Assembly: GCA_036012755.1 (NCBI GenBank)
Contig: DASCPX010000203.1
Location: forward strand, 1 to 39,304
Direction: 5' to 3'
Source of the DNA: Myxococcota bacterium
GTDB taxonomy: Bacteria; Myxococcota_A; UBA796; CAJQPC01
Length of the DNA stretch: 39,304 nt
Positions within the stretch are counted from its first letter, which is position 1. Every line of letters starts with the position of its first letter. The notes beneath the pieces were generated by a model. It was given only the letters and a program-made list of their open reading frames with translations, was not told the origin of the DNA and searched no databases. The translations under genes and the position numbers were made by a program. Shown here piece after piece: positions 3,344-38,724 of the stretch.

Positions 3344-5173
3344 CTACTCTGGCCGACGACGCACCAACATGGCCATCAACAGGGCGAAGAGCCCCACGCC
3401 GCCGGCGCCTGCGCCAGTGGTGCAGCGACAGCCGGGGCCACCCTTGACGTTCGCGTCGAATGACACGCAGGCATCTCCGGTCCCCGGGGTCCCGTAGTTG
3501 CAGTCCTCTGCGTCGTCTTCGCCGCGAGCGAACTCCTGGGAGAACCCGGCTTCACACCAGGCATCCAGCGGATCGTTGTCGGTAGCCGGATCGGAGCTGG
3601 AGGCGACGTCGAACACGAGCGAGTGGCCCTGCCGGACCCCCTGCACGTCGAGATCGTAGGAGAAGGTGTCGATCTCGAGCTCGCCCAGCCCGGTCGAGGC
3701 GTCAGGACAGACCAGGGAGACAGTGCGGGTCCCCGTGTTGGGCAGGGAGAGCCCCGAGAGTGGGACCTCGCCCTCCGTGCAGTCCGGCACTCCGCCGGTG
3801 TCTCCGCCCTCGCCGCCGAGCAGGCAGCCGCCGCTGGTCAGCGCCAGGCTCTGGCCAGCCGCCAGGGCCACTTCACCAATCTGTGTCGTGTCGACGGAGT
3901 CGTCGTCGGCGACCTGGACGGTGCAGCCCTCGAGCTCCAGGTCCCCACTTGTCGTGTTGGTCACCTCGAGCCACTCGGAGAGTCCCGCCGGGTTCGCCAT
4001 CACCTCGCTGAAGACGACCTCGCCGACGGCGGGGTTGTCGAAGACCGCGCAGCCGTTGACCTCGCCCGGAGTGGCACGGACCGTGTTGCCGTCGTCGTCT
4101 GCCACCTCAGCGTCGCCCAGGCACCACTGGCCGAGGTCGTCGTTGGTCGACGGATCGTAGGACGACGGGCTGAGCTGGACACTGCAGGAGACATCCTCCG
4201 GGCAGCGATCTTCGAAGAGAGACCAGTCCAGCGGCGCGGTGTCGACCGCCAGGCCGTCACAGATCAACGACAGCCAGCGGGCCTCGCTGTTGGACTGGGA
4301 CAGGCCCGAGTAGGTCCCCGCCGCGTCGACATAGAGGAGGTCCCCGCGGGAGAAGACGGCGTGCTCACCACCGGCGAGCTCGATGATCGCCCCCTCGATC
4401 TCTTTTTCGTCACTGATGCAGTCGGGGTTCGTCGTGTCGGCGCAGGCCCCGATGGCCAGGAAGCAGCCGGTCAGGTTGCAGGCATCGCCGGAGCGCCCCG
4501 CGAGCTCGATCCACTCGTCCGAGGAGTTCGGCGGATCCGCCATCAGCTCGCTGATCACGACCTCGCCCGCCTCGCACAGAGGGGGTGGGGCGACGCAGAC
4601 ATTGGCTGCACCCGGCGTGCCCACGGCGTCGCCGCCGACCTGGTCCAGGTAGACCTCGTCCTCTGGAGGGATGCACCAGTTGTCGAGGTCGTCGTTGTCC
4701 GTGTCGGACATGGTGTCCTGACCTAGGTTGATCGCGCAGCTGTCCCCCGCACAGAGCCCCGAGAACTCGCTCCAGTCATAGGGCGCTTCGTCCACGAGCG
4801 TGCCGCCACAGGTGATCGACAGGGTCTCCGCGGCGGAGTCGTTGAAGCCCAGTGACGGGTAGTAGTAGGCAGGCTCCACCGAGCAGTCCTCGACCACGCA
4901 GTAGTCCGAGGAGTCGGAGCCGGGCCGGTAGCCCAGGACCGTGAAGTCCTCTCCCGGGATCAGGACCGTGTCCGAGATCGTGTGTGCGTTCGTAGTCCCG
5001 CCGTCGGAGCCCTCTGTGAGGACACAGCCGTCCAGATCCCACTCTGTCTGCGTGGGATTGTAGACCTCGAACCACTCGCGCACACCGCTGGGTGCGCTGA
5101 CGTGGATCTCGCTGATGACGAGCTCTCCTTCACCGGGGGCGTCGGCGAGTGCCAGGGTGATCGTCAGGAGCAT
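3344..5173 (-). CDS. Secreted protein with three lamin-tail domains and C-terminal MYXO-CTERM-like anchor
   Basis: Three 'GE(L/V)V(I/F)SE(I/L/V)...EW.E' units, each ending 'NDD...WC...(G/A)TPG'. C-terminus GCRCTTGAGAGGVGLFALLMAMLVRRR. ATG 5173 overlaps the upstream stop (TGATG). Confidence 0.85.
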   Translation of the reverse strand: MLLTITLALADAPGEGELVISEIHVSAPSGVREWFEVYNPTQTEWDLDGCVLTEGSDGGTTNAHTISDTVLIPGEDFTVLGYRPGSDSSDYCVVEDCSVEPAYYYPSLGFNDSAAETLSITCGGTLVDEAPYDWSEFSGLCAGDSCAINLGQDTMSDTDNDDLDNWCIPPEDEVYLDQVGGDAVGTPGAANVCVAPPPLCEAGEVVISELMADPPNSSDEWIELAGRSGDACNLTGCFLAIGACADTTNPDCISDEKEIEGAIIELAGGEHAVFSRGDLLYVDAAGTYSGLSQSNSEARWLSLICDGLAVDTAPLDWSLFEDRCPEDVSCSVQLSPSSYDPSTNDDLGQWCLGDAEVADDDGNTVRATPGEVNGCAVFDNPAVGEVVFSEVMANPAGLSEWLEVTNTTSGDLELEGCTVQVADDDSVDTTQIGEVALAAGQSLALTSGGCLLGGEGGDTGGVPDCTEGEVPLSGLSLPNTGTRTVSLVCPDASTGLGELEIDTFSYDLDVQGVRQGHSLVFDVASSSDPATDNDPLDAWCEAGFSQEFARGEDDAEDCNYGTPGTGDACVSFDANVKGGPGCRCTTGAGAGGVGLFALLMAMLVRRRPE

Positions 5174-7392
5174 CAGAACCTCCACTCGACCGAAGCCCGG
5201 ACGAGTCCATACAGACTGCCGGGCTCTGCGAGCTCGTTGTCGTTTGTGTCGGTGGCCACGCAGCTGCCTTCCAGCTCGGGCAGGCCGGCCCGTGAGCATG
5301 CATCAGCCCAGTCGGCCTCGGGATCCGCCAGGTTCTTGCCGACCGTGCCGCGGACCGAGAGGCGCACTCGGCGCTCCGGGAGCTTCTGGTCGAGCTGCAG
5401 GTAGCTCTCCACGTAGCGCTCTCCGTGGCTGCCGTGGACGCTGTCGTCCAGGTACTTGACGCGCCACTGCAGGCCGGTGTTCGGGGTCGGCTTGACCTGG
5501 GCCTTGACCCAGACGTACTGCCCGATCTGGAACCAGTACTCGCAGGGGCCGATCCCGTCGAGGGTCGGGTAGAGCAGGCCGGTGTCCTCGTAGTAGCGCT
5601 TGTAGAAGGCGGTCAGGGTGAGGACGCGCAGGGACTCGTTTCGGACCTCGCCGCCCCAGGTGGTCCGGATACCAGCGCGGTCGGTGACCTCGATGTCGTC
5701 CAGGTCTTCGCCGCTGTACTCGGCGAAGGCGTCGTACTCACCGCCGTAGACGTAGCCGCGGCCGTTCCGGCTCAGGTCGCGGTTCTTGTAGTCGGCGAAG
5801 GCGGCCAATCGCCAGTCATCGCGGGTGTGGGTCACCCGCCCGTAGGCCTCTGAGTTCCAGCGGGCGACGCTGATGTTCTGCCAGAGGTCGAGGCGCCCCC
5901 GCAGGCTCCAGCCGATCGCTGGATCCAGCTGGGTCTTCAGCAGGATCCCCTGCTCGTCTCGATCCCGGTAGCCCTGGACCTCGTCCGCGTTGGCCGTGCC
6001 CCTGGCGTGGGGGTTGTCGAAGTCGACGTCGTAGCGCCGAAGCGTCACGTCGAACTCGCCCCAGCCCTGGTCGACGACTGCCTGGAGCGAGTAGCCGTTG
6101 CCCCCGGTGAAGCTGGTGGCGACCTCTGCGCGGAGCTCGGCCAGACCCACCATCGCGCCGCCGTGGACGCCCGCCGCGCCGTAGTAGTCCTCTACCGGGT
6201 AGCCCCCCCGGAGCACGAGGTCGTAGTCGCTCTCGGCGCCATCGAGGAGGGTCCGGTCCATGTGCCCGGCCCAAGCGGTGGCGCCGACATAGTGGAGGCC
6301 GTGACCCAGGCGCAGGGTGGCGTCCGCCCCCAAGAGGTCCTCTCGGTAGACATCCGGAATGGTGACGTACTGGGTCTTCTGGTAGTTGCCCTCGCGGTCG
6401 AGGACGTAGACCCGGGGGCTCGTGAGCTCGTCGGACTCGGGGTCGACGACATCGCCCTCCCCCAGCCCGAGGTCGTACTGGTAGACGTCGTAGCGCCAGC
6501 TGCTGGCGAAGAGCGTCGTCTCGAGGACGTGCTCGCCGACGGGCGTGCGCATCTGCACGGCGCCACCGAAGAGGCCCCTCGCGCTGCGGTAGTGCTCCGT
6601 ACCGCTGAGCTCGAGATCCCGGTACCAGCCCTCCGGGTTGCGCCTGGAGGAGCGGTCGAAGGTGAGCCCGTTGCCGAAGCCGACGTTGTAGGAGCCCATG
6701 ATCGCGCTGACCCGCTGCCGCTCGATCGAGGCGAAGCCCTTGGCGAAGGTGAAGGTCGGCGTGCCCCAGCCGACGTAGACGTCCCCTCGCTCGGCGTCGA
6801 ACTGGACGTCGCGCACGTCCTCCTGGGCGTAGCCAGCGAAGCCCACGGTCCAGTCCTTGTCGTAGCGGACGGTGGTCTTGAGGTAGGTCGAAGGCAGGCG
6901 CTCGTAGCCAAGGTCGGAGAGCCGGTGGGAGCGGTTGGGGTGGTCGTCCTCGATGGCGGGTTCGGCTTGTTCGAGAGCCAACACCGTGCGCACGCGGGTG
7001 ACCCCATGCAGCGGTGGCACGGAGGTGATGCGGACCTCGACGAAGGGGGCGATCTGCTCGACCACGTTGGCGTCGACGCCCTCGATCGAGAGCAGGTCCT
7101 CTACGCGGTCGAAGCGCCCTCGGCTCCGACGAGCCTCGATGATGCGGGCCGCGGTCTCCGAGCTGACCCCCGGCAGATCCACGAGCTCGCCTCTGCGGGC
7201 CCGGTTCAAGTCGATCGGGTCGTGGAGCAGCTCGAGCAAGGTCTCGTAGTCGTCCGCGGTGAGCAGACCGTCCCGGTAGAGCTGCTCGAGGTCGTCCTCG
7301 TCGTCGACGAGGATGGGCGACGGGTAGACGCGGGCCTGGGCGACCGAGGTCACCAACAGGAGCCCGAGGCCGACGCTAAGGCGCTTCAGCAA
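5173..7392 (-). CDS. ComEA-type helix-hairpin-helix domain fused to a putative outer-membrane beta-barrel
   Basis: Signal peptide ending AQA. 'PIDLNRA...ELVDLPGVS...AARIIEAR..RGRFDRVEDLLSIEGV' HhH. About 600 aa of alternating amphipathic beta-strands. Ends ...RASVEWRF (terminal Phe, Bam-type signal). TTG start overlaps the PLD gene end. Confidence 0.8.
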   Translation of the reverse strand: MLKRLSVGLGLLLVTSVAQARVYPSPILVDDEDDLEQLYRDGLLTADDYETLLELLHDPIDLNRARRGELVDLPGVSSETAARIIEARRSRGRFDRVEDLLSIEGVDANVVEQIAPFVEVRITSVPPLHGVTRVRTVLALEQAEPAIEDDHPNRSHRLSDLGYERLPSTYLKTTVRYDKDWTVGFAGYAQEDVRDVQFDAERGDVYVGWGTPTFTFAKGFASIERQRVSAIMGSYNVGFGNGLTFDRSSRRNPEGWYRDLELSGTEHYRSARGLFGGAVQMRTPVGEHVLETTLFASSWRYDVYQYDLGLGEGDVVDPESDELTSPRVYVLDREGNYQKTQYVTIPDVYREDLLGADATLRLGHGLHYVGATAWAGHMDRTLLDGAESDYDLVLRGGYPVEDYYGAAGVHGGAMVGLAELRAEVATSFTGGNGYSLQAVVDQGWGEFDVTLRRYDVDFDNPHARGTANADEVQGYRDRDEQGILLKTQLDPAIGWSLRGRLDLWQNISVARWNSEAYGRVTHTRDDWRLAAFADYKNRDLSRNGRGYVYGGEYDAFAEYSGEDLDDIEVTDRAGIRTTWGGEVRNESLRVLTLTAFYKRYYEDTGLLYPTLDGIGPCEYWFQIGQYVWVKAQVKPTPNTGLQWRVKYLDDSVHGSHGERYVESYLQLDQKLPERRVRLSVRGTVGKNLADPEADWADACSRAGLPELEGSCVATDTNDNELAEPGSLYGLVRASVEWRF

Positions 7393-7879: not shown

Positions 7880-7940
7880 GCGTCGGAGGCTCACGAGATC
7901 CCTTGGGCCGTTCGGCGCCGGTGATACCATGCGCGCGCTC

Positions 7941-8915: not shown

Positions 8916-8922
8916 CAGCGGG

Positions 8923-8928
8923 ATGCTA
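8923..8928 (-). promoter_or_regulatory. -10 hexamer TAGCAT positioned for leaderless transcription of the GT2 gene/cluster
   Basis: TAnnnT 7 nt upstream of ATG 8915, with no SD in between. Confidence 0.5.
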
Positions 8929-8971
8929 ACCGCCCGACCGACCGCCCTTCATCGGCACGTCTGGGGGAGAA

Positions 8972-9176: not shown

Positions 9177-11222
<2,046 letters not shown>

Positions 11223-12302
11223 ATGCCCCTGAACATCGACAACGATCTCCACCGCTTCCGCCAGATCGTGAAGGGCCGGATCCGAAAGGACCTGAAGCGC
11301 TTCATGAGCTCCGGCGAGATGATCGGGAAGCAGGGGAAGAAGGTCGTGTCGATTCCGCTGCCCCAGATCGCCATCCCCAGGTTCCGCTACGGCAAGAACC
11401 AGGGCGGCGTAGGGCAAGGCGAGGGAGACGGCCAGGGCTCCGGCCAGGGAGAGGCTGGCAACGAAGCCGGTCAGCACGTGCTCGAGGTCGACGTCTCCTA
11501 CGAGGAGCTCGCCGAGATCCTGGCAGAGGAGCTCGAACTCCCGAACATCGAGCCCCGCGGCCAGAAAGAGATCACGACCGCAAAGGACCGCTACACCGGC
11601 ATCTCCCAGCAGGGGCCGGAGTCCCTGCGCCACACCCGGCGGACCTTCCGCGAGGCGCTGAAGCGCCAGATCGCGGGGGGGAACTACGACCCGAAGAACC
11701 CACGGATCGTGCCGGTCAAGGAGGACAAGCGCTACCGCTCCTGGAAGGCGCAGACCCAACCACAGTCTGCCGCGGTGATCATCTACATGATGGACGTCAG
11801 CGGCAGCATGGGGAAGGAGCAGAAGGAGATCGTGCGGCTGGAGGCATTCTGGATCGACACCTGGCTGTCCCACCAGTACAAGAACGTCGACACGCGCTTC
11901 ATCATCCACGACGCCGTGGCCAAGGAAGTGGACCGGCACACCTTCTTCCACACCCGAGAGAGCGGCGGCACGTTGATCTCGTCCGCGTACAAGCTGGCCA
12001 TGCGCATCATCGACGCGGAGTACCCACCGCAGGAGTGGAACATCTACCCCTTCCACTTCAGCGACGGGGACAACTGGAGCTCCAGCGACACGAAGCAGTG
12101 CATGGAGCTCCTGAAGACCCAGATGGTCCCGAAGGTGAACCAGTTCTGCTATGGCCAGGTCGACTCCGAGTACGGGAGCGGCCAGTTCATCAAGGACCTC
12201 GAGCAGAACTTCGGCGAAGAGAAGTTCGTGCGTCTTTCTCGCATAGCAGACCGCGAGGGCATCATGGACTCTATCAAGGACTTCCTCGGGAAGGGCTACT
12301 GA
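11223..12302 (+). CDS. yeaH: YeaH/YhbH (DUF444) vWA-domain protein
   Basis: 'EELELPNI', 'MMDVSGSM', 'ESGGT..SSAY' and '[13 protein letters not shown]'; directly follows prkA. Confidence 0.93.
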
Positions 12303-12303
12303 G

Positions 12304-13814
<1,511 letters not shown>

Positions 13815-13818
<4 letters not shown>

Positions 13819-14262: not shown

Positions 14263-15372
14263 TCAGCAGCGCTGGAAGGTGTGCACCACGAGGATCTCGC
14301 CGGTCTCGGTGTTCACGACACCGACGGCCTCCTCCGAGCACTCGGACATGTCCATGTAGAGCTGGAGCTCCACGTGGTCAGACGGGGCCGCCGTGACCGG
14401 GTCGCGGATGTCCTCGAACATGGTCTCGACCTCTCCGTAGAGCGCCGCGGCCTCGCTCTCGTCCGTGGGGTCCCAGTCGCCGTCCTCGGCGTGCTCGTCG
14501 ATGGCGGTCAGCGTGGTGTCCAACAGCTGCGTGTAGGCACGACCACCGCTGGTCCAGTCACCGACCTGGCGAACGTCCCGGTACTGGCCGGCCTCGCTGT
14601 AGCTGAGGAAGAAGACCTCGTTCCACAGCGCCTCTTCGATGGCGGCGCGAGCCTCGTCGTCGTCCTGCCAGTCTCGGCAGCCCGACAGGCTCAGGGCCTT
14701 CACGTCGGCGAAGGGGGCATCGCTGGTGGTCGTGAGGGCCAACAGCCTGGTGTAGTCCTCTGCGGAGAGGTTCTTGCCGGCCGTGATGCTCAGCTCGCAG
14801 CCTGCCGCGGTGGCGTCGTCACCGACTGCCTCGAGCCGGAGGATCGTCATCGCTGCGTTGCCGATCCAGTAGAGCTCTGAGAGCGCGTGGATGGTCTGGA
14901 TGTCGCCTGCCGCGAGGATGCTGTCGACGGCGCGGCGATCCAGGAGCGCGTCGAGCTCCTGCTCATCGGCTCCGACCACGAAGTCGAGGGTGAGCTCGGC
15001 CTGCTCGGTGGTGAAGGTCACGCCGTCCCAGGTGCCGAGTTCGTCGTCGCCCTCTGGAACCCAGCCGTTGGCGTAGGCGTGTGACTCGAGCTTGGTGAGC
15101 GCGGCCGGGCCGACCCACCAGGAGTCGTCGACCTCTGTGATGTCGTCGAAGGAGCCGGAGTCGAGCTTGTGCTGCATGAGCGCCTTGGCCGCCCGGCGAT
15201 CGAGACCGACGAGGTCGTCGAGGACCGGGAGGTTGGTGCTGTCGTCGTTGACGAAGCGCACGACGCCGACGGCGCCAGGGCTGCCTTGGAGCAGGGTGTT
15301 GTCGATGCCCTTGGCGTGTGCGGCGAAGCCGCCGCTGTTGGAGCCAGAGCAAGCGAGGATCAGGATGAACAT
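14263..15372 (-). CDS. Acidic lipoprotein with two degenerate ComEA-like helix-hairpin-helix repeats
   Basis: GGAGG RBS and MFILILAC start. Repeats 'LDRRAAKAL...FDDITEVDDSWWVGPAALTKL' and 'LDRRAVDSIL...IQTIHALSELYWIGNAAMTIL'. Confidence 0.7.
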   Translation of the reverse strand: MFILILACSGSNSGGFAAHAKGIDNTLLQGSPGAVGVVRFVNDDSTNLPVLDDLVGLDRRAAKALMQHKLDSGSFDDITEVDDSWWVGPAALTKLESHAYANGWVPEGDDELGTWDGVTFTTEQAELTLDFVVGADEQELDALLDRRAVDSILAAGDIQTIHALSELYWIGNAAMTILRLEAVGDDATAAGCELSITAGKNLSAEDYTRLLALTTTSDAPFADVKALSLSGCRDWQDDDEARAAIEEALWNEVFFLSYSEAGQYRDVRQVGDWTSGGRAYTQLLDTTLTAIDEHAEDGDWDPTDESEAAALYGEVETMFEDIRDPVTAAPSDHVELQLYMDMSECSEEAVGVVNTETGEILVVHTFQRC

Positions 15373-17072: not shown

Positions 17073-17536
17073 GGAGCCTGGTCGGCTGCGAAGAAGCGCT
17101 CGAGCACTGGCGCCATGTTCGCGACGGTGTTGTCGGCCCAGGCTCCACCGGTGATGGACTCGGGCTGCGGCGCGCCGTGCTCGTCGAGGTGGACCCAGAA
17201 GGGGATGCCGCTGGTGATGAAGCCTGCCCCAGGCAGCTCGGCGGCGTACTCGTCAGCGTCGATCTCGATGATCCGCACGCCCTCGTGGGCAGCCACCATC
17301 GCCGGATCGTCCTTCACCTTCTTGTAGACGAGGCAAGGCGCGCACCAGCCCGCTCCCAGGTACGCGACCGGCTTTTCACCAGCCTCTACGGCGGCGGCGG
17401 CTTCACGCGCGACCTCGTCGGTCAGCACGCGATCTCCCTCGATCTTCGTCCAGGATATCGATGCCTCCGGAGCCCCGCTGATCTCAGCCTGCGGCGTGCA
17501 GGTGCACGCGAGCGTCATCCACAACATCATGCTCAT
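17069..17536 (-). CDS. Thioredoxin-fold (lipo)protein
   Basis: 'KPVAYLGAGWCAPC' CxxC, 'IEIDAD' and cis-Pro 'GIPF'. N-terminal MMLWMTLAC; start could be 17536, 17530 or 17527. Confidence 0.8.
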   Translation of the reverse strand: MSMMLWMTLACTCTPQAEISGAPEASISWTKIEGDRVLTDEVAREAAAAVEAGEKPVAYLGAGWCAPCLVYKKVKDDPAMVAAHEGVRIIEIDADEYAAELPGAGFITSGIPFWVHLDEHGAPQPESITGGAWADNTVANMAPVLERFFAADQAP

Positions 17537-18326: not shown

Positions 18327-19481
18327 CTACCGGCGGCGACGAACCCACAGCAGAGCCAGGATCCAGCTGGCACCGATCGCCCCAGAGGAGCAGCCACAGC
18401 CCCCCAGCGGCGTGCGCTCCCCAGGCATCAGGTTCTTGGGATCGCGGCCGTCGTCGGCCGTGTCCCGCTCCGGGTCGCTGTCTCCTGGCGGGTCGCTGTC
18501 TCCTGGCGGGTCGCTGTCTCCTGGCTGCTCCACCTCGCCGACGCACTCGACGCTGAGCGTGAAGTCGCTCTGGGCATCCTCCCAGCCGTCCACGACCGCC
18601 ACGTAGACGTGATCGGCGCTGGCGGACCAGGCGACGGACTCGTCCGAGGCGTCGCTCTCGGAGCTCGATCCGAGACAACCGGAGCCATCGCAAGCGGCGT
18701 CCTCGAGCACGTAGAGGTCAAGGTCGGCGGAGAGCCCGGTCATCCTCACCGTCACGTCCTCGGAGAGCCCGGTGACGACCTCGAAGGCAAGCTCCTTGCC
18801 CGTGTAGGTCCAGTCCTCGCACCCGTACGCCATGTGCTCGGCGTCTCCAGAGGCGTTGCTGCCAGACCAGGTGTCCCCGCAGGTGAGACGGCTGGTGGGA
18901 GAGCACTCGGGCACGTCCTCGCAGACACCGCCAGGCACGCTGCCGTGTGAGCCCTGGGAGACCCAGTAGGAGGGCGGCGAGGAGCAGTCCCCGTAGAAGG
19001 GATCGTGGGCCACCGAGTCGACCCGCACCTCGAAGTGGAGGTGGGGCCCCGTCGAGTAGCCGCTGGAGCCCATCTCGCCGAGCACGGTGCCGCAGGCCAC
19101 GCTGTCTCCCGCGCCGACCGCTACGGACCACTGCTTCAGGTGGGCGTAGTAGGTGACCTTGCCGTCGGGGTGCTCGATCACGACGTAGTTGCCGAAGCCG
19201 CCGCCGCCGTCGCAGTCGCCGGTCGTGCACTCGTCGAACTCGCCGTCGTTGGTGTAGAGCACCGTGCCCGGTGCGGCCGCGACGATGGTCCGACCCTCCT
19301 CCATGCCGTCGAAGCCGCCGCCGCCGAAGTCCGAGCCGTTGTGCCCGGAGTAGCGGATGGACCCGCAGGCCCAGTCGACCCCGCTGTGGTCCTTGTAGGC
19401 AGTGGGGTACATCGAGGAGATGTCGTCGTCGGCCACGGGGAACCGGTAGTCCTGGGCCAGGGCCAGGCCGACGAGGATCAA
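18327..19481 (-). CDS. M23 family metallopeptidase with PPC-like domain and MYXO-CTERM-like anchor
   Basis: HNGSD (HxxxD), 'GFGNYVVIEHPDG..TYYAHL', 'GSSGYSTGPHLHFEVR' (HxH), 'ADLDLYVL' PPC-like motif and a GGCGC...WILALLWVRRRR tail. TTG start overlaps the upstream stop (TTGA). Confidence 0.88.
   Translation of the reverse strand: MILVGLALAQDYRFPVADDDISSMYPTAYKDHSGVDWACGSIRYSGHNGSDFGGGGFDGMEEGRTIVAAAPGTVLYTNDGEFDECTTGDCDGGGGFGNYVVIEHPDGKVTYYAHLKQWSVAVGAGDSVACGTVLGEMGSSGYSTGPHLHFEVRVDSVAHDPFYGDCSSPPSYWVSQGSHGSVPGGVCEDVPECSPTSRLTCGDTWSGSNASGDAEHMAYGCEDWTYTGKELAFEVVTGLSEDVTVRMTGLSADLDLYVLEDAACDGSGCLGSSSESDASDESVAWSASADHVYVAVVDGWEDAQSDFTLSVECVGEVEQPGDSDPPGDSDPPGDSDPERDTADDGRDPKNLMPGERTPLGGCGCSSGAIGASWILALLWVRRRR
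18471..18525. repeat. 3 x 18-bp perfect tandem repeat encoding a PGDSDP linker
   Basis: CGGGTCGCTGTCTCCTGG repeated three times. Confidence 0.9.
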
Positions 19482-19882
19482 GGCGCCGCCACGCTCTTCG
19501 GCCCCTCTGGCGAGTCCCAGCTGATCACATCGCCGTCGAAGACCAGGCCCCCCCGATGAGGCGGCGGCACGAAATCGGGAGAGGGGCCGGTGAGGCCGAC
19601 GTTCGTGAGCTGCACGGGGTCTCGCTCGGACAACGACATCCACCAGACGGAGGCCACCGGTCCGGCGACCCACACGAGCTCCGTGCCGTCCGGGCTCAGG
19701 GCCGGACGATCCCCGCGCTGCACGAGCACCTCCCTCTGTCCGTCCGTCACGAGCTCGATGCGGGCCTCGCCACCGGCTGTCGTGCACTCCACGGTCGTGG
19801 ATCCGGCCTCGACGACAGCAAGGACCCCCGGGAGACGGTCTGTCTCCTGCGCGCCGGCGAGTGCAAAGAAGACCTGGAGCAT
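19478..19882 (-). CDS. Small secreted protein with a single TolB/PD40-like motif
   Basis: 'RPALSPDGTELVWV...SVWWMSL...PVQLTN'; short signal MLQVFFALAGA; TAGCCT 5 nt upstream. Confidence 0.65.
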   Translation of the reverse strand: MLQVFFALAGAQETDRLPGVLAVVEAGSTTVECTTAGGEARIELVTDGQREVLVQRGDRPALSPDGTELVWVAGPVASVWWMSLSERDPVQLTNVGLTGPSPDFVPPPHRGGLVFDGDVISWDSPEGPKSVAAP

Positions 19883-19922: not shown

Positions 19923-20633
19923 ATGATCTGGTGGACCCTCGGAGCGGCTCTGGCCTGGGACGTGACCGACGCTGGCGAGGCGGTGCCCGACGCCACCAAG
20001 GCGGTCATCGTCGTGACCCCCGGGGTGAGCCGCCAGGCGGTCTTCACCTGGGTCGAGATCTTCGAGCAGGAGGGGCTCGACGCCTGGACCGCCACCCTGC
20101 CCTCCAAGGGCCAGTCCCTGGACGCGGCCGTAGAGAGCCTGGGCGAGGCCATCGCTGCCCTCGACGAAGAGGTCGTCATCGCGGCCCACGGCTACGCAGG
20201 CGTGCTCGTCCTGTTGGCAGGCCTGGAGCCGAAGCGCCTGGTCCTCGTCGGGGTGCCGCTGGCCAAGCAGGTCACGACGACCATCGCTGTCCATCCCGGC
20301 GAGGTCGTCAGCGAGGGCATGCCCTTCCCAGCGGAGCTGACGGGTCACCTGCCGCTGGAGCCCTACTCCGGCGACCTCGGCGGGGCCTACTTCACCTGGG
20401 CCTCCGACTTCCCGGACTACGCGGCGCCCACGACCCCCACGCTGGTCATCGGGTCCAACGTCGATCCGATCGCCCCGCCCGAGATCTGCAGGCTCCCCAG
20501 CCGAGACTGGCCCGACCGCGCCTGGCACCGGGCCGGCAGGCTGGGGGTGGCCGAGGAGGAGCTCGAACACTCCGGGCTGCTCACCCATCCGCGGACCGCC
20601 AGGATGATCGCGCGCTTCCTGGGCGAGCCATGA
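19923..20633 (+). CDS. Alpha/beta-hydrolase-fold protein lacking the nucleophile serine
   Basis: 'FEQEGLDAW', 'VIAAHGYAG' (vs GHSxGG), 'PTLVIGSNVDPIAPPE' and 'LEHSGLL'. Parallels the downstream paralog. Confidence 0.65.
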   Translation: MIWWTLGAALAWDVTDAGEAVPDATKAVIVVTPGVSRQAVFTWVEIFEQEGLDAWTATLPSKGQSLDAAVESLGEAIAALDEEVVIAAHGYAGVLVLLAGLEPKRLVLVGVPLAKQVTTTIAVHPGEVVSEGMPFPAELTGHLPLEPYSGDLGGAYFTWASDFPDYAAPTTPTLVIGSNVDPIAPPEICRLPSRDWPDRAWHRAGRLGVAEEELEHSGLLTHPRTARMIARFLGEP

Positions 20634-21667
20634 TCTGGCTCCTGGCCTGCACGGGCGAAGAAGAAGTCCGGATCGAGCGCGACCTGCCCGAAGCCGAGCA
20701 GTTCACGGTCGCGACAGACGACGGAGCAGCCATCGTGCTCACCCGCCGAGCGGCAGAAGGACCGCCGGTGGTCATCGTCCACGGCATCTCGAGCAACCAC
20801 CACTGCTGGGACCTGACGAGGGAGCGCAGCCTGGCCGTCTACCTGCAGGAGCAGGGCTTCGACGCCTGGCTCGTCGACCTGCGCGGCCACGGTGACGCCA
20901 CCCTCGACGCAGACGAGAAGCGTCAGTGGGCGGGCTGGTCCATCGATCACTATGGCCAGCACGACATCCCGGCGGCGGTCGATTTCGTCCGGCAGGAGAC
21001 CGGCTACGAGCAGGTCGGCTACGTAGGACACAGCCTCGGCGGCATGGTGGGCGCCATCTACGTCGGCACCCAACCCGGCGCCGAGGACGCCCTCTCGAGC
21101 CTCATCGCGGTGGGCTCGCCGATGGACTTCAGCGACCCGGACCCGGTGATGTGGAGCGCGCTGTACTCGGCGGGCTTCACCTGGATCCCGCTCATCCCGA
21201 GCGGGCTCGGGGGGCGCTTCGCTGCGCTCTTCGACGGCAAGACCTTCACCCGGGCCGATGTCTGGGCCCAGGAGCTCCTGTTCACCGACATCGAGCAGGG
21301 CTTCGTGCCGCTGATGTACGCCAACGTCGCCTCACCGCTGACCCGCGGAGAGCTGCTCCAGCTCTCCCGCGTCGTCGAGACCCAGTCCTTCGTCAGCGCC
21401 GAGGGCAGCATCGACTACACCAGAGCCCTCAACGACGTCACCACCCCGACGCTGGTCATCGCCGGCCGCGGGGACCAGATCGCCCCTGTGGACCGGGTGT
21501 ACGCCTACTACGACGAGGTCGGCGCCACAGAGAAGGCCTTCGTGGTAGCTGGCCGAGCCACCGGCTTCGCCGCGGACTACGGGCACCTCGACCTGCCGCT
21601 GGGTGATCACGCCCGAGAGGAGATCTACCCGCTGATCGCGGAGTGGCTCGCTGGGGAGGGCCGATGA
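20630..21667 (+). CDS. Alpha/beta hydrolase (lipase/PHA-synthase-like fold), probable lipoprotein
   Basis: 'VVIVHGISSN', 'GFDAWLVDLRGHG', GHSLGG nucleophile elbow, 'GDQIAP' Asp and 'YGHLDL' His. ATGA coupling; starts MIWLLAC. Confidence 0.9.
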   Translation: MIWLLACTGEEEVRIERDLPEAEQFTVATDDGAAIVLTRRAAEGPPVVIVHGISSNHHCWDLTRERSLAVYLQEQGFDAWLVDLRGHGDATLDADEKRQWAGWSIDHYGQHDIPAAVDFVRQETGYEQVGYVGHSLGGMVGAIYVGTQPGAEDALSSLIAVGSPMDFSDPDPVMWSALYSAGFTWIPLIPSGLGGRFAALFDGKTFTRADVWAQELLFTDIEQGFVPLMYANVASPLTRGELLQLSRVVETQSFVSAEGSIDYTRALNDVTTPTLVIAGRGDQIAPVDRVYAYYDEVGATEKAFVVAGRATGFAADYGHLDLPLGDHAREEIYPLIAEWLAGEGR

Positions 21668-26328: not shown

Positions 26329-27279
26329 TCAGCTCGAGAGGATGCCCTCGATCCCGCTCATCACGTCGGGCTCGAGCTTGTCGATGACCTCGAGCGCCGC
26401 GAGGTTCTCGTGGACCTGCTCGACCCGCGAGGCACCCGTGATCACCGTGCTCACGTTGGGGTGCTTCGCCGTCCACGCCAGCGCGAGCTGAGCCATCGTG
26501 CACTCCAACGCCTCCGCGACGGTCTGGAGACGGCGGAGCTTCGGGATCTTGTCGTCGATGCCCTCGAGCACGAGGTCCCGGAGCCAGGCCTCTCGGTGGA
26601 GACGGCTGTCCTCGGGCACCCCGTCGTTGTACTTGCCGGTGAGCAGCCCGCTGGCGAGGGGGCTCCAGGTCGTGGTGCCCAGGCCGTACTCGGCGACCAG
26701 CGGTGAGAGCTCCGTCTCCAGGCGGTCTCGACAGAACATGTTGTATTGAGGCTGCTCCATCGTCGGGCCCTCGAGGCCCAGGCGTTCGGCGGCGGCGTAG
26801 GCCTCCTGCAGCTGCTCCGCGGTCCACTCGCTGGTGCCCCAGTAGAGGATCTTGCCCTGCTGGATCAGCGTGTTCATCGTGCGAACGACCTCGTCGACCG
26901 GCGTGTCGGGGTCGTGGCGATGGCAGAAGTAGAGGTCGAGGTAGTTCACCTGGAGCCGCTTCAGGGCCGCGTGGCAGGCCTCGACGACATGCTTGCGGTT
27001 GAGCCCGACGTCGTTGGGGCCGTCGCCCCCCCAGAAGACCTTCGAAGAGACGACGTAGTCCTGGCGTCGCAGCTCCGAGAGCACGCGACCGACCACGACC
27101 TCTGCGTTTCCGTGGGCGTAGGCCTCGGCGTTGTCGAAGAAGTTGACGCCCTTGTCGAAGGCCGCGAGCAGGCACTGGCGGGTGAGGGCCTCGTCGCACT
27201 GCTTGCCGTAGGTCACCCAGGAGCCGATGGAGAAGCGGGAGACCACGAGCCCGGAGCGGCCGAGGCGGTTGTAGATCAC
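26329..27279 (-). CDS. Aldo/keto reductase (Kv-beta subunit-like)
   Basis: 'YNRLGRSGLVVS...GSWVTYG', 'GVNFFDNAEAY', 'SSKVFWG', 'GKILYWGTSEW' and 'WSPLASGLLTGKY'. GTG start overlaps the upstream stop (GTGA). Confidence 0.92.
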   Translation of the reverse strand: MIYNRLGRSGLVVSRFSIGSWVTYGKQCDEALTRQCLLAAFDKGVNFFDNAEAYAHGNAEVVVGRVLSELRRQDYVVSSKVFWGGDGPNDVGLNRKHVVEACHAALKRLQVNYLDLYFCHRHDPDTPVDEVVRTMNTLIQQGKILYWGTSEWTAEQLQEAYAAAERLGLEGPTMEQPQYNMFCRDRLETELSPLVAEYGLGTTTWSPLASGLLTGKYNDGVPEDSRLHREAWLRDLVLEGIDDKIPKLRRLQTVAEALECTMAQLALAWTAKHPNVSTVITGASRVEQVHENLAALEVIDKLEPDVMSGIEGILSS

Positions 27280-29810
27280 TCGGCGCCCACGAAGGTGAAC
27301 GAGAGGGGTCCGGTGACGTCGAGGGTCTCCAGCGTCGTGCTGTCGTAGGTCCCGCTGGAGCTGCCCGCGTAGAGGTAGCTGTCGGCCGGAGAGGACCAGC
27401 TGCCGCCGTAGTAGTTCACGAACAGCAGCTCTGGCAGGCCGTCTCCGTCGAGGTCCGCGGCGCCGGCGTCCCGCGGGCCGTAGGTCGCCGCCGTCGCGCT
27501 GTCCGCCGAGGACAGCCCGCTGGTGCTCCCGTAGTAGACGTAGCTGGTCGTGCTGTAGCTGCTGGAGGTCCGGTAGACCGGCACGATGAGGTCGTCGACG
27601 CCGTCCGCGTCGAGGTCCGCCGACTCGGGGTAGAGGACACCTTCCGTGGACAGCCCGGTCCGGTCGGAGTCCGAGTACCCGCTGGAGCTGCCCCACCAGG
27701 CGTAGCTGGTCGTGCTGAAGCTGGAGCCGTCGTAGTAGCTGCCAGCGAAGAGATCGGTGTAGCCGTCGTCGTCCCAGTCGCCGCTGGCGAGACCCGCCTG
27801 CCCCGTGCCGCTGAGTCGCTGGCGGTCGCTGTTGCCGAAGCCCGTGCTGCGGTCGTTCCAGTAGACGTGCACGTCGGTGGAGTAGCTGCCGTTGTACCAG
27901 GCGCTGAAGACCAGGTCGGTCAGCCCGTCGCCGTCGAGGTCCTCGTTGATCACGTCCAGCGGGCCCTCGGTGGAGAGGTCGGTGGTGTCGCTGGTGGAGT
28001 AGCCGCTGGAGGAGCCCCAGTAGATGGTCGAGTCCGGGTTGCTGGAGCCGTCCCAGTACTCGGCGAAGACGAGGTCGATGTAGCCGTCCTGATCGAGGTC
28101 CTCGGCCACGCTCTTGCGAGCCCCGTAGGTCTCCAGGTCCGTGCGGTTCGAGGTCGAGAAGCCCGTGGCCGACCCGTAGTAGACGTAGCTGTCGGTGCTG
28201 TAGCCGCTGTTGTAGTAGCTCGCGAAGACGAGGTCTTCGTAGCCGTCCAGATCGAGGTCCTCGATGTCGACGTCCAGAGCCCCGATGGTGTCCACGAGCT
28301 CCCGGTCCGAGGAGGAGTAGCCGCTGGCGGAGCCGTAGTAGATGTAGGAGCTCGCCGAGTAGCTGCCGTCGTAGTAGGTCGCGAAGGCGAGGTCCTGGTA
28401 GCCGTCGCCGTCGATGTCACCGGCCTCCACGTCCCAGGTCCCCGTGGTGGTGACCGTGTCGCTCCAGGAGTCGGAGAACCCGCTCCCGTCGCCGTAGAAG
28501 AGCGCGCTCGAGGTCGTGTAGCTCGACCCCGAGTAGTAGCTCCCGATGGCCAGGTCCATGATGCCGTCGCAGTTCAGGTCCGTGCAGAAGTCGTTGCCGT
28601 CACAGTCCTGGTCGATGCCGTCACCGGGGGTCTCGGTCGCCGTGGAGCCGGGGTAGGCGGTCGAGTCCGAGTCCTCGCAGTCGCTGTCGTCGTCGACGTA
28701 GCCGGAGGGCTCGTCGCAGGAGGTCGTGGTGGTCGAGGAGTCGCCGTAGCCGTCACCGTCGCTGTCCGCGTACCAGGTCTCGGCGTCGAGGCTGTCCGCG
28801 TCGTCGACATCACCGTCGCAGTCGGAGTCCTCGCTGTCGCAGTGCTCGTCGGCTCCCGGGTAGATGTCGGCGTCGCTGTCGTCGCAGTCGGTGGCGTCAG
28901 AGACCTGGGAGCTGTCGCCGTAGCAGCTGATCGTCTCCGTGCTGGCGTCGCCGTAGCCGTCACCGTCGCTGTCGCTGTACCAGGACTGGGCGTCGACGGC
29001 GTCGTCCTCGTCCGTGTCGCCGTCGCAGTCGTCATCGACTCCGTTGCAGCTCTCTGCGGCGTCCGGATTGACCGCGGAGTCGTAGTCGTCACAGTCCCCG
29101 TCTACCTCTGCGTAGCCAGTCGGCAGCTCGCAGGACTCGGCGCTGGCGGAGCTCCCGTAGCCGTCGCCGTCACCGTCTTCGTAGAAGGTCGTCGTCACGC
29201 CCTCGTCGATCTCGCCGTTGCAGTCGTTGTCTGCCTCGTCGCAGACCTCTGGGTTGCCGGGGAAGGCGTTGGCGTCGGTGTCGTCGCAGTCCGTGTCGTC
29301 GGCGACCCAGCCCTCTGGTGGGTTGCAGTCCTCGAGCGGGCTGCTCGCGTCGCCGTAGGTGTCGCCGTCGGCGTCCTCGAACCAGCTCGTCAGGACATCT
29401 TCGTCGACCTCTCCGTCGCAGTCGTTGTCGAGCTCGTCGCACTGCTCACCGGCGTCCGGAAAGACCTCTGCGCTGCTGTCGTCGCAGTCGGTGTCGTCGT
29501 CGACGTAGCCCTCGGGCTGCTCACAGGAGACCGTCGAGCCCGCGGCGTTGCCATAGCCGTCGCCGTCGGCGTCCTGGAACCAGGTGTCACCGACGCCATC
29601 GTCGACCTCGTCGTTGCAGTCGTTGTCGATGTCGTCACAGATCTCGACCGCCTGGGGGTTCACGGCGGGGTCGTTGTCGTCGCAGTCCTCTGTGACGTCG
29701 AAGCCGTCGCCGTCTACATCCGCAGGGGGGCTCGAGTCGTGGACTTCGGTCAGACCGCTGTCGTAGTCCTTCGAGCGGCATGAAATGGCGAGCAGGAGGG
29801 CAAGAGGCAC
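27276..29810 (-). CDS. Lipoprotein with 6 MopE-type repeats and 8 FG-GAP/VCBS-like repeats (beta-propeller)
   Basis: Probable GTG start at 29810 (MPLALLLAISC). DCDD repeats are followed by eight 'D(L/I/W)DxDGxxDL' units with 'YxYYGS..G.S'. Confidence 0.85.
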   Translation of the reverse strand: MPLALLLAISCRSKDYDSGLTEVHDSSPPADVDGDGFDVTEDCDDNDPAVNPQAVEICDDIDNDCNDEVDDGVGDTWFQDADGDGYGNAAGSTVSCEQPEGYVDDDTDCDDSSAEVFPDAGEQCDELDNDCDGEVDEDVLTSWFEDADGDTYGDASSPLEDCNPPEGWVADDTDCDDTDANAFPGNPEVCDEADNDCNGEIDEGVTTTFYEDGDGDGYGSSASAESCELPTGYAEVDGDCDDYDSAVNPDAAESCNGVDDDCDGDTDEDDAVDAQSWYSDSDGDGYGDASTETISCYGDSSQVSDATDCDDSDADIYPGADEHCDSEDSDCDGDVDDADSLDAETWYADSDGDGYGDSSTTTTSCDEPSGYVDDDSDCEDSDSTAYPGSTATETPGDGIDQDCDGNDFCTDLNCDGIMDLAIGSYYSGSSYTTSSALFYGDGSGFSDSWSDTVTTTGTWDVEAGDIDGDGYQDLAFATYYDGSYSASSYIYYGSASGYSSSDRELVDTIGALDVDIEDLDLDGYEDLVFASYYNSGYSTDSYVYYGSATGFSTSNRTDLETYGARKSVAEDLDQDGYIDLVFAEYWDGSSNPDSTIYWGSSSGYSTSDTTDLSTEGPLDVINEDLDGDGLTDLVFSAWYNGSYSTDVHVYWNDRSTGFGNSDRQRLSGTGQAGLASGDWDDDGYTDLFAGSYYDGSSFSTTSYAWWGSSSGYSDSDRTGLSTEGVLYPESADLDADGVDDLIVPVYRTSSSYSTTSYVYYGSTSGLSSADSATAATYGPRDAGAADLDGDGLPELLFVNYYGGSWSSPADSYLYAGSSSGTYDSTTLETLDVTGPLSFTFVGAE

Positions 29811-29859: not shown

Positions 29860-30816
29860 ATGCTCACCCTGCTGCTCTCCGGCCTCGCACAGGCCGCCAC
29901 CTGCGACTCGGTCCTGCTGAACGTCAACCTGGACTCGAAGGGCTTCCACGTCAGGGGGGCGGACGAGCTGCTCTACCCGGGGGGACGCCCGGCGATCGCC
30001 GACAACCCCGAGATGAAGTGCAAGACCGAGGTCTGCGATGACCTCGAGGACTTCAACTGGGCAGGCCTCGACGCGACGCTGGGTCGCCTGAAGTCCTCTT
30101 GCCCGGCGGTGACGGAGGCCCAGGTGGTGCTGAGCCCGGAGCTCGCCCACGACATCTTCCTCGAGACCCTCGACCACGTCGATGCCGACTTCCCGAGCGT
30201 GTTCGTCGGTGGCGGCGCCCAGGGCTACGGCGACGGGGGAACTCCTACGACCTCGTCGATGCTCCTGCGGCCGGGCCAGGTGGTGGTCTACGACCGTGCC
30301 TTCTCGCTGGACTCGGATCCCGGAGTGCTCGCGAAGGCCTTCGAGCTCGGCACGAAGACGCAGACGACGCTCAAGATCGAGGCCGCCGACACCGCGACCT
30401 TCGGTGAGCTGGCGCAGATCATGAGGGCCGCGGGCGCAGCCGGCTACCTGCGCTTCGAGCACTCGGACCCCAACGGCAAGCGCCTCCACAAGACCACCAC
30501 CCCGGGAGGCGGCGCGCTGGCCCCGGTGAAGAAGGCGGAGATCTCCGCGAAGGCGCTCAACGCGGGCATCCAGCCGGTCGTGCCGGCGGTGCTGGAGTGC
30601 TACAACACGGCGCTGGGCGATGACCCGACCCTCAGCGGCACCGTCGAGATCTCGATCACGATCACGCCGCAGGGCAACGTCAGCGGGACAGAGGTCAAGA
30701 AGGGAATCGAGTCGCACCTGGACCGCTGCGTGGCGGAGGCGGTGGAGGAGACCAGCTTCGGGGCGCCGGGCGGGACGGTCGTGACGAGCTTCCCCTTCAA
30801 CCTGGCTCCGAGATAG
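29860..30816 (+). CDS. Secreted fusion of two ExbD/TolR-like periplasmic domains and an AgmX/PglI-type TonB C-terminal domain
   Basis: Signal ending AQA. 'FNWAGLDATLGRLKSSCP...HDIFLETLD...FPSVFVGGG'; 'LKIEAADTATFGELAQIMRAAGAAGY'; 'ECYNTALGDDPTLSGTVEISITITPQGNV...LDRCVAEAV...F...FPF'. Confidence 0.7.
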   Translation: MLTLLLSGLAQAATCDSVLLNVNLDSKGFHVRGADELLYPGGRPAIADNPEMKCKTEVCDDLEDFNWAGLDATLGRLKSSCPAVTEAQVVLSPELAHDIFLETLDHVDADFPSVFVGGGAQGYGDGGTPTTSSMLLRPGQVVVYDRAFSLDSDPGVLAKAFELGTKTQTTLKIEAADTATFGELAQIMRAAGAAGYLRFEHSDPNGKRLHKTTTPGGGALAPVKKAEISAKALNAGIQPVVPAVLECYNTALGDDPTLSGTVEISITITPQGNVSGTEVKKGIESHLDRCVAEAVEETSFGAPGGTVVTSFPFNLAPR

Positions 30817-34796: not shown

Positions 34797-34897
34797 TCCG
34801 ACGCCACTCCAGGGCTACAGCGATTCCAGCTGGCGTCTGGGGAGACGCGAAGAGTAGACTTGCGGTCCGGCTGCCCAGGACGGCACGGCGTCACAAG

Positions 34898-36770: not shown

Positions 36771-36933
36771 GAACCGTGAATCGGATCGGCAGCGCGTGCG
36801 CGATAGGCCCTCGATCGATCCGCTCCGCCTGACGCTGCTGCGAGGGTTGATAGCGGGTTGAAACCACGATCCTCCTCCGGTGGCGGTTCTGAGAGATGGA
36901 GGCACCGCAGCCTCCTGCCACCCGGAGCCCGTC

Positions 36934-37587
36934 ATGAAGCGCATCACCCCCCTCGCCGCCCTCGCCATCCTCGTCGGCTGCTCGGATCTCGAGCAGGAAG
37001 AGGTCCTCACCCTCGACGCCATGGACCAGAGCCTGACCAAGGCCCTCGACGACCAGGAAGCCGAGGAGCCGGTCCTCATGGACCTCGACGTCGAAGAGCT
37101 CGACAACAGCGAGCTCGACGACGAGGACACCCGGCGCGAGAACATCCGCCGTGCCCTCCGACGCCTCGCAGAGGACGAGCCCTGCGCCATCCGCGGCGTC
37201 GTGGCCGGTCGCTACCAACCCGCGGAGCTGGAGGACGCCGACGGTGTCTTCGCCGGCCGAGCCTTCCGCAAGGACCAGGAGCTGGTCGCCAAGGGCGCGG
37301 GCACCTACGCCGGCGAGGGCGGCTTCGGCGAGTTCGACGGCGAGTACGTCAACTTCGAGCGCGACACCGGCATCGTCAGCGGACGCTACGGCCACATCCA
37401 CGATGACGAGCGCATGCTCGGGCTCTTCGACGGCGAGTGGGACCCCACCGACGAGACCATCGAAGGCGGCAACATGCGCGGTGTCTGGCACCCGCTGAAG
37501 GAGGCCTCGGGCGGCATGTTCGTCGGCTACTACAGCCGCTGTGACCTCGACCCACGCCACCTCGAGGAGAGCAACGCGAGCGAGTAG
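36934..37587 (+). CDS. Hypothetical lipoprotein with Gly/aromatic beta-strand repeats
   Basis: Canonical signal MKRITPLAALAILVGC, GGAG RBS, repeated G.F.G..(Y/W) strands. Confidence 0.8.
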   Translation: MKRITPLAALAILVGCSDLEQEEVLTLDAMDQSLTKALDDQEAEEPVLMDLDVEELDNSELDDEDTRRENIRRALRRLAEDEPCAIRGVVAGRYQPAELEDADGVFAGRAFRKDQELVAKGAGTYAGEGGFGEFDGEYVNFERDTGIVSGRYGHIHDDERMLGLFDGEWDPTDETIEGGNMRGVWHPLKEASGGMFVGYYSRCDLDPRHLEESNASE

Positions 37588-38724
37588 ATCCAGATCAGCG
37601 CGGGGGCCCCCGGGCCCCCACAGCCACAGCCCGCCGAGCCCAACAGGGAGCGCCCCCCCGGCGCCCCGTCGAGGGCCGGCGGGCTCGTGTCGTCCTGGTC
37701 CGGAAGGTCGCTGTCCGCGACGCAGGGCGGCTCGAGCAGGCGGTAGATCCAGCGGGCGGCGTCAGCTCGGACCAGGTCGTCGTCGGGACAGTAGTGGTCC
37801 GCCTCGCAGGCCTCGGCGACGCACTCGACCAGCAGGGCCTCCACGTAGGGCGCCCAGGTCTCGTCGACGTCCGTGAAGCTCCGACCGCCCGGGTCCTCGA
37901 GGGCCCAGCTGCGCGAGCACGGCCAGCACCTCGTCGTCGTCCACCATGTCCGCGAAGTGCCCCGCGCCGTCGACCGGAAGGGCGAAGCAGCCCTCCTCGA
38001 CCAGGCAATGGCCCGCCTCGCCGGAGCCGCTGGCGACCACTCCCCAGTGGTTCGCGACCGAGCGCATGGAGCCATCGCTGGGTTCGTTGAGCGCTCCGGA
38101 GCCCTCGACCCAGAAGGTGCTGGAGCCGCCGCCGTCGAGGTTGAAGGCCTGCCAGGCACCCAGCGCTCCCATGAGCTCCGCGAGCTCGGCCCCGTACATC
38201 CCCGAGCTGCGGGTGGAGCGGCCGTCGACCACAGCGAAGATCAGCGTCCTGCGGTCCACGGAGAGCCCCATCGCCGTGCGCGGATGGCGGTCGCGCATGT
38301 CAGAACGATCCGGGAAGCAGTCGCTGTCGGTCGGGGAGACGCAGGTGTAGACCTCTCCCCCGTAGACGAGCTGGGGGAAGCCGCTGACCAGCGCGAGCGT
38401 GTCGTCGTCGACGCCGAGCTGGTCCAGGGGCCAGCGCTCACCCCCGCCCACGGCGTCGCCGTAGACCGAGGTGCTCGAGTAGAAGTCGCCGTTGACGGCG
38501 AGCTGGGCGCCGACATCTTCAGCCCAGGCGCCGGCGGTCTGTCGGGAGCTCGGCGCCTCGGTGGCGAGGACCGAGATCCCGGCGGCGCAGAGATCGATCT
38601 CCGCGACGAAGACGTCGTTGTCCGGGTCATCCCACCGCTGCTGCCGCACGACCACGCCGACGAAGGGCTCCTGCACGTCCTCCGAGACGAAGGTCGAGGC
38701 CAGGACGTGGGTGATGAGGAGCAC
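37530..38724 (-). pseudogene. Phosphodiester glycosidase (NAGPA/DUF2233) + SLH-like domain + MYXO-CTERM-like tail, +1 frameshift near 37904-37906
   Basis: 'AVNGDFY', 'RHPRTAMG', 'VVDGRS' and 'AFNLDGGGSS' are in the first frame. After removing one G: 'SFTDVDETWAPYVEAL...YCPDDDLVRADAARWIYR' (SLH) and a 'GCGCGG...ALIWIYSLALL..RWR' tail. Start is 38724 or 38739. Confidence 0.75.

Follow-up and report, generated by a model that had tools for sequence, protein, structure and literature searches.

Very short, uncharged leaders as probable minimal Sec signals in a lineage of Myxococcota

The products of several hundred genes of an uncultured Myxococcota bacterium (assembly GCA_036012755.1) begin with a methionine and 5 to 11 hydrophobic, uncharged residues, followed directly by a lipobox cysteine or by Ala-x-Ala. 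We consider these leaders probably to be minimal Sec signals of about half the usual length, reduced to the hydrophobic core (h-region) and handled by ordinary enzymes. By the textbook rule a signal peptide is tripartite, positively charged and 15-30 residues long, and the sequence comparisons below indicate a real, lineage-restricted, genome-wide departure from that rule. The leaders came to notice in a stretch of 39,304 nucleotides, hereafter the window, which is contig DASCPX010000203.1 (C203) of the source genome (G000; 6.73 Mb, 96% complete). A search of this assembly for 16S rRNA gave no match.

Short leaders in the window

All 11 short N-termini that an earlier, sequence-only reading had listed are present where it placed them, with leaders of 6-12 residues, and so are two canonical signals (starts at 36934 and 7392) that it had set beside them. 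Leaders ending in Ala-x-Ala are called signal peptidase I (SPase I)-type.

5144..5173, minus strand: 10-residue SPase I-type leader of a lamin-tail-domain protein (gene 3344-5173; PF00932); overlaps the upstream gene's stop
15352..15372, minus strand: 7-residue lipobox leader, Cys at 8 (gene 14263-15372); Shine-Dalgarno-like site at -11; public records agree
17507..17527, minus strand: 7-residue lipobox leader, Cys at 8 (gene 17069-17527); start uncertain by 1-3 codons
17584..17601, plus strand: 6-residue lipobox leader, Cys at 7 (gene 17584-18177); no upstream in-frame start; TAnnnT at -12
19455..19481, minus strand: 9-residue SPase I-type leader of an M23 peptidase (gene 18327-19481; PF01551); TTGA stop/start overlap
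19850..19882, minus strand: 11-residue SPase I-type leader (gene 19478-19882); in-frame stop 1 codon upstream; TAnnnT at -11
19923..19955, plus strand: 11-residue SPase I-type leader (gene 19923-20633); unpinned start
20630..20647, plus strand: 6-residue lipobox leader, Cys at 7, of an alpha/beta hydrolase (gene 20630-21667; PF00561); ATGA overlap
29781..29810, minus strand: 10-residue lipobox leader, Cys at 11, of a MopE-type-repeat/FG-GAP protein (gene 27276-29810; PF11617, PF13517); Shine-Dalgarno-like site at -10
29860..29895, plus strand: 12-residue SPase I-type leader of a TonB_C-like protein (gene 29860-30816; PF03544); stop 3 codons upstream; TAnnnT at -12
38698..38724, minus strand: 9-residue SPase I-type leader of a phosphodiester glycosidase (NAGPA) protein (PF09992)
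36934..36978, plus strand: canonical-type lipoprotein signal with a Lys-Arg n-region, Cys at 16; internal contrast
7333..7392, minus strand: canonical-type 20-residue SPase I signal of a helix-hairpin-helix protein; internal contrast

Six of the 11 starts are pinned. Those at 17584, 19882 and 29860 have no other in-frame ATG, GTG or TTG after the preceding in-frame stop, which lies 34, 1 and 3 codons upstream, respectively, and those at 5173, 19481 and 20630 are fixed by stop/start overlaps, all three of which were confirmed. The -10 box said to precede the first three was recovered as TAnnnT at -12, -11 and -12. This motif 12 bases before a start is typical of leaderless transcripts, and genes 17584-18177 and 29860-30816 are likely transcribed in this way. 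The other five starts are less firm. At 15372 the Shine-Dalgarno-like site reads GGAGG, and a TTG five codons upstream would yield a 12-residue signal with one Arg; additional ATGs lie 1, 3 and 27 codons upstream of 17527, an alternative ATG 14 codons upstream of 19923, and an alternative GTG 5 codons upstream of 38724; the GTG start at 29810 has five possible starts upstream. Five proteins (17584, 20630, 29860, 19882 and 15372) were looked up in public collections, where each carries the identical start on 10-14 contigs.

The mature parts had been called clearly extracytoplasmic. A Pfam domain shows this for only five of the 11 (LTD, M23, MopE-type/FG-GAP, TonB_C and NAGPA); of the remaining six, four lack a Pfam family, one has a sub-threshold match and one is a location-neutral hydrolase fold. 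Both the lamin-tail-domain protein and the M23 peptidase end in a C-terminal anchor of Cys-x-Cys, a hydrophobic stretch and Arg-Arg, which we take to be MYXO-CTERM-like, and the mature part of gene 17069-17527 contains a WCAPC motif.

Two further features were observed. In the divergent pairs 17527/17584, 19882/19923 and 29810/29860 only 40-56 bases separate the starts, and every gene has a short leader. Metal-binding repeats of PF11617 occur in two large acidic lipoprotein-type proteins on the minus strand (565-3318 and 27276-29810), one with a 19-residue Arg-containing signal and the other with a 10-residue uncharged one.

Census of leaders in the source genome

Genes of the source genome were called with our own dicodon gene caller (5911 genes, 92% coding), and the 5788 with a closed 5' end were examined for leaders. 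A leader was counted as pinned when it followed the farthest upstream start available to the gene, so that its signal could not be any longer. Uncharged, hydrophobic leaders with a lipobox Cys at 6-15 were pinned in 444 of the 5788 genes, with the mode at 8 (77 with Cys at 7, 150 at 8, 96 at 9 and 61 at 10), against a mean of 7 and a maximum of 13 in 20 shuffles and 34 of 23,633 internal methionines. Canonical-like lipoprotein signals numbered only 90, even with a loose filter. SPase I-type leaders were pinned in 198 genes with a mode of 11 (nulls 48-63), beside 94 canonical-like SPase I signals; a further 352 unpinned leaders of this type include false positives.

The objection that the true starts lie upstream fails on two counts. 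In 136 of the 444 pinned lipobox genes an in-frame stop lies within 3 codons before the start, so that no start codon of any kind can supply an n-region; and starts fixed independently yield equal lengths. The latter set comprises 1736 genes whose starts were fixed solely by a stop/start overlap or a -10 box, irrespective of the signal. A lipobox was found in 312 of them, with Cys at or before 12 in 279 and at 7-10 in 261. Lys and Arg were absent from 283 of these 312 lipobox leaders and from 81 of 121 SPase I-like leaders, and the claim that such leaders occur on most exported proteins is therefore fair. It does not extend to all of them, since TolB retains a canonical signal in each of five genomes examined.

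Another 452 genes (of 896 short lipobox genes in all) have the short leader at a later start and an alternative start upstream. Here the start signals favour the short start: TAnnnT precedes it in 50 cases versus 8 for the upstream start, and overlaps number 94 versus 14. At exactly 12 bases ahead of the start, TAnnnT was found in 70 of the 444 short-lipobox genes versus 178 of 2518 other genes.

Motifs, cargo and ancestry of the leaders

With the motif filter off, the residue before the Cys (-1) was Ala, Gly or Ser in 341 of 351 short Cys leaders, compared with 29% before internal Cys, and the -3 residue was Leu in 202. Likewise, [AVS]xA ended at 8-16 in 86 of 112 Cys-free leaders, compared with 37 in shuffles (maximum 52). 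From these residue frequencies we conclude that both the lipobox and the Ala-x-Ala motifs are under selection. The modal SPase I-type leader (11) is 4 residues longer than the modal lipoprotein leader (7), a difference in the same direction as in canonical signals (PMC9360617). The leaders are without Arg, so they do not qualify as twin-arginine (Tat) signals.

Among 50 ortholog pairs listed, weight was placed only on lipobox pairs and clear cases, as many unpinned SPase I-type entries were false positives of the filter (cytoplasmic or membrane proteins). In relatives G004, G006 and L110-L112 the lipobox Cys is kept behind longer signals that mostly contain Arg or Lys. One such pair is MFPLLLAC in the source genome and MRALPLLFGLAAC in G004; another is the window hydrolase starting MIWLLAC (20630), whose homologs L110-L112 have longer Arg/Lys-containing lipobox signals. 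The alignments thus indicate that the short leaders descend from longer canonical signals.

The cargo includes BamA (TIGR03303, 592 bits; cut-off 297), which has a 13-residue leader devoid of Lys and Arg at a start pinned in two ways; BamA of G004 and of the class outgroup G145 have canonical signals. A second LolA carries a 12-residue leader. Among 18 proteins with the Cys-x-Cys/hydrophobic/Arg-Arg anchor, 10 have short leaders, 3 canonical ones, 1 both and 4 none. Motif selection, the shared ortholog Cys and the BamA leader together support the suggestion that this lineage uses minimal export and lipidation leaders.

Some other envelope proteins were inspected alongside. In each of the five family genomes compared (L059-L063; G004, G005, G000, G006 and G007), BamD carries an SPase I-type signal but lacks a lipobox Cys; it may be a soluble periplasmic protein there instead of a lipoprotein. 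The start of Pal was not recovered by our lipobox motif. LptE (PF04390) gave no match in four of five genomes searched (G000, G005, G004 and G081), probably through divergence.

Distribution among relatives and the length floor

The pattern M-x-x-h-h-h-A-C occurs 92 times in the source genome and 69-136 times in the seven other genomes of genera g1, g4 and g6, compared with 1-43 in the other 33 relatives and 0-19 in 215 genomes outside the order. In gene-level samples, pinned short leaders were found in 0 of 296 genes from four outgroup genomes and 0 of 169 from G025 and G029, in 4 of 165 genes of G004 and 4 of 157 of G006, and in 5 of 72 of G033. The other signals of G004 and G006 are shortened as well, with Cys mostly at 12-18 and often one Arg, and the sampled lipoproteins of G025 and G029 have canonical, basic signals of 15-19 residues. 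A 100-kb sample of G012 held a lipobox in 2 of 79 genes, both short, too few for weight.

Genomes with at least 6 pattern matches per Mb, a threshold of our own, were taken as the high-trait group. This group needs 4 changes, at least 3 of them forced by well-supported branches, on trees of SecY (34 rows) and of SecA plus SecY (21 rows). The trait is restricted to one order and patchy within it, by repeated shortening or repeated reversal, and forms no single clean clade.

The leaders also have a sharp minimum length. Under the filter of the census, 77 genes of the source genome have Cys at 7 and 4 have Cys at 6. Counts of the strict pattern with Cys at 6, 7 and 8 were 5, 43 and 42 in G000, 10, 46 and 48 in G002, 7, 30 and 11 in G007, and 13, 38 and 103 in G298; in three genomes of the sister genus g4 they were 5/4/90, 15/3/56 and 5/3/44. 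Some of the Cys-6 matches are internal methionines of longer leaders. Most lineages thus have a floor of six residues, and g4 has one of seven. Drift by itself is not expected to produce a heritable limit this sharp, and we infer selection by a length-measuring step.

Export and lipidation machinery

Inspection of SecA, SecY, Ffh, LepB and LspA, a check that had been proposed, revealed an ordinary set. SecA, SecY, SecE, YidC, Ffh, FtsY, signal recognition particle RNA, LepB, TatC and SecDF-YajC are encoded by single-copy genes, and a second SecA or SecY was not found in the source genome. LepB has its Ser and Lys motifs. There are two LspA, each with both catalytic Asp motifs, five Lgt, Lnt and LolA, and a tandem lspA-lspA-lgt-lgt cluster lies at G000:C59 99967-102645 (L027:2968-5646). 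YajC (L026:4381-4737, minus strand) has a short uncharged signal-like stretch ending in Ala-Trp-Ala, followed by a transmembrane helix. One of the Lgt genes, which the sequence-only reading had passed over, lies in the window:

23345-24268, minus strand: Lgt-family prolipoprotein diacylglyceryl transferase, one of five paralogs (PF01790, 166 bits; matches E. coli Lgt 5azb)

Lgt/LspA copy number was considered as a correlate of the trait and rejected: Lgt gave 3-6 matches in each of 41 relatives and 2-7 in five outgroups, and low-trait genera have two LspA as well.

In SecA, 11 columns separate the order from the outgroups and 4 the high- from the low-trait group, and none in the groove region could be tied to the signals. 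The finger loop of the Ffh M-domain is common to the outgroups, and no Ffh column separates high from low. Nothing was apparent in SecE among five genomes. Between the floor-7 genus and the floor-6 genomes, 4 columns of SecY and 10 of SecA differ, and these resemble ordinary divergence.

SecY showed a change in its pore ring. Position 185 of the source protein aligns with E. coli I187 and is Ala or Ser in 28 of 28 order genomes, compared with Ile or Met in 28 of 28 outside the order; the residue at F192 is Thr in 25 of 28 order genomes versus 2 of 28 outside. I187 belongs to the isoleucine pore ring, and the sites of prl suppressors lie in the ring, plug and gate (PMC2171872, PMC3164448). Its replacement by Ala or Ser is a pore-ring substitution as in prlA-type SecY. 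The change and the short signals co-occur at the order-wide level only.

Explanations considered

We propose that the basic n-region was lost and that the leaders would still be handled by SecA/SecYEG export, followed by Lgt, LspA and Lnt for the Cys class and by LepB for the Ala-x-Ala class. Channel opening would need no more than a short Leu-rich core. As a helix, at about 1.5 A per residue, a leader of six or seven residues is too short to span the bilayer, so it probably lies at the lateral gate or within the membrane's outer half. This position would present the Cys or Ala-x-Ala to active sites that face the periplasm, and a strongly acidic early mature region may help orientation.

The SecY change may have come first. 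As a tentative proposal, which we would sooner doubt than assert, the order-wide change of I187 to Ala/Ser and F192 to Thr would act as a natural prl-like relaxation that made n-regions dispensable, and signals would then have eroded in several sublineages down to the floor, plausibly by starts hopping into the h-region, where the Leu codon CTG is one base away from ATG, GTG and TTG. Taken more broadly, the whole order may run on a naturally relaxed, prl-like translocon, with several lineages having independently reached a physical minimum, six residues in lipoproteins and roughly nine in SPase I substrates, free of any n-region or membrane-spanning hairpin; the one-residue difference in floor would then point to a mappable molecular ruler in SecY, Lgt or LspA. 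This is a conjecture that we hold open while leaning slightly against it.

Several observations weigh against these proposals. The -2 residue is Leu in 225 and Phe in 31 of the 351 short Cys leaders (256/351), outside the E. coli-type consensus [ASTVI], which is found in 85. The window Lgt has MGG in place of E. coli HGG, and HGG is seen in only one of the five paralogs. The acidic mature start is shared by the canonical lipoproteins of the source genome (-3.0 vs -2.7). Neither SecA nor Ffh differed convincingly between high- and low-trait genomes, no such difference was visible by eye in the SecY alignment, and no SecY or SecA column clearly accounts for the floor of six versus seven. The SecY change is also present in G025 and G029, which have canonical signals, and is thus not sufficient; 12 other SecY columns split the order from the outgroups as well, and the prl positions given in the consulted passages of PMC2171872 and PMC3164448 do not include I187. 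The change at 187 may be a lineage marker.

An alternative that we judge unlikely is a dedicated lineage-specific factor or route, such as a targeting chaperone, YidC-only insertion or a specialised Lgt or LspA paralog capturing the N-terminus, with Sec acting afterwards or never. A rigid minimum length, one residue higher in one genus than in its sister, is suggestive of a binding site that acts as a ruler; the five Lgt and two LspA paralogs, with their tandem cluster, fit this reading, and no matching change was found in SecA or Ffh. However, the Cys and non-Cys classes became shorter together, and across the order they pass gradually into canonical signals; substrates as large as BamA carry such leaders, multiple Lgt matches also occur in all 41 relatives and in five outgroups, and two LspA occur in low-trait genera.

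Somewhat less probable still is that the leaders drive export but stay uncleaved as short greasy N-terminal anchors, with diacylglycerol or nothing on the Cys. LspA acts on a membrane-anchored signal (PMC8689077), a six-residue leader leaves just three residues ahead of the lipobox, and the -2 residue is bulky. Against this, the small -1 residue in 97% and the Ala-x-Ala enrichment match the selectivity of peptidases, LspA, Lnt and LolA are retained, and BamA has to leave the inner membrane, as is established.

That many of the proteins are not exported, the leader and Cys merely holding them on the cytoplasmic face of the membrane, is very improbable. Six of the 11 window proteins do lack a location-diagnostic Pfam domain, but BamA, a LolA paralog, M23, TonB_C and C-terminally anchored proteins bear such leaders, and the roughly 90 lipoprotein and 94 SPase I canonical-like signals would be few for a 6.7-Mb diderm genome.

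The explanation that mis-called starts or single-base assembly errors removed true n-regions draws on three apparent frameshifts in the window, our own gene caller and the upstream alternatives in 452 of 896 short lipobox genes; it is largely refuted and hardly credible, given the 444 genes with no upstream start, 136 of them with a nearby stop, the start signals of the 452, the identical proteins on 10-14 contigs and the recurrence of the pattern in many genomes.

Our preferred reading, of minimal Sec signals, bears on the lower size limit of signal peptides. Mutants have been the main means of probing the smallest working signal and the function of the n-region. In the source genome 640 genes with pinned starts, or as many as about 1450 when unpinned ones are added (nulls not subtracted), BamA included, appear to dispense with the n-region, and the lineage offers a natural test of minimum signal size with hundreds of natural sequences. 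To these it adds a sharp floor, unequal in sister genera, and one candidate SecY change, all of them open to tests in E. coli or in vitro. Judged by these leaders, annotation of such uncultured bacteria may miss part of the secretome and lipoproteome or place the starts wrongly.

Other features of the window

Tandem PrkA-like kinase, YeaH/YhbH-like and SpoVR-like genes occupy 9177-13818 (plus strand), with a GC content of 0.62, below that of the rest of the window. Apparent single-base frameshifts occur at about 26100 (a histidine kinase tail), 35100 (the gene starting at 34898) and 37860 (the NAGPA gene, which continues in another frame and ends in a Cys-x-Cys/hydrophobic/Arg anchor). They are either assembly errors or pseudogenes.

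Comparison with known systems

In the literature searched, with most subscription papers outside its coverage, genome-wide signals lacking n-regions were not found for any bacterium, and the consulted passages of PMC11495043, PMC9957290, PMC5468347, PMC8082313 and PMC2132503 do not report such short signals. Lipoprotein signals average 16-26 residues and have a positive n-region (PMC8689077), with shorter h-regions (PMC9360617). Signal peptides in general have 15-30 residues, and export is slower at zero or negative n-charge (PMC12190922); the E. coli type has a positive n-region of 5-6 residues and a core of about 12 (PMC2132503). The labels of SignalP 6.0 presuppose an n-region of at least 2 residues (10.1101/2021.06.09.447770).

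The Cys class resembles Sec/SPase II signals, processed by Lgt, LspA and Lnt as in E. coli Lpp, in its hydrophobic core ending in a lipobox with a small -1 residue, in a Pro/Gly/Asp-rich linker after the Cys, in sharing that Cys with canonical orthologs and in the encoded enzymes. It differs in its length of 6-11 residues, far from the published average, which is too short for a transmembrane helix, in lacking a positive n-region, and in a -2 residue that is mostly Leu or Phe where the consensus in PMC8689077 is [ASTVI]. The Ala-x-Ala class resembles Sec/SPase I signals in its Leu-rich core, Ala-x-Ala end and acidic mature start, and the LepB gene is present; its mode is 11 in place of 15-30 (PMC12190922), and its core begins at residue 2.

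Two other systems invite comparison. Like the prlA (SecY) and sec61 prl alleles, the order combines a small or polar pore-ring residue with seemingly defective signals (PMC3164448, PMC2171872); unlike those mutants, the change here is natural and fixed order-wide, its effect is a prediction, and 187 falls outside the suppressor positions that the consulted passages name. Class III leaders of type IV pilins and archaellins are also very short N-terminal pieces, and cleavage of the present leaders is predicted; prepilin peptidase, however, removes class III leaders, which are without a typical h-region (PMC12190922), whereas here the leader is itself the hydrophobic part. By their residues and their orthologs, the leaders resemble, and appear to descend from, Sec/SPase II and Sec/SPase I signals, yet they depart from both in n-region and in length.

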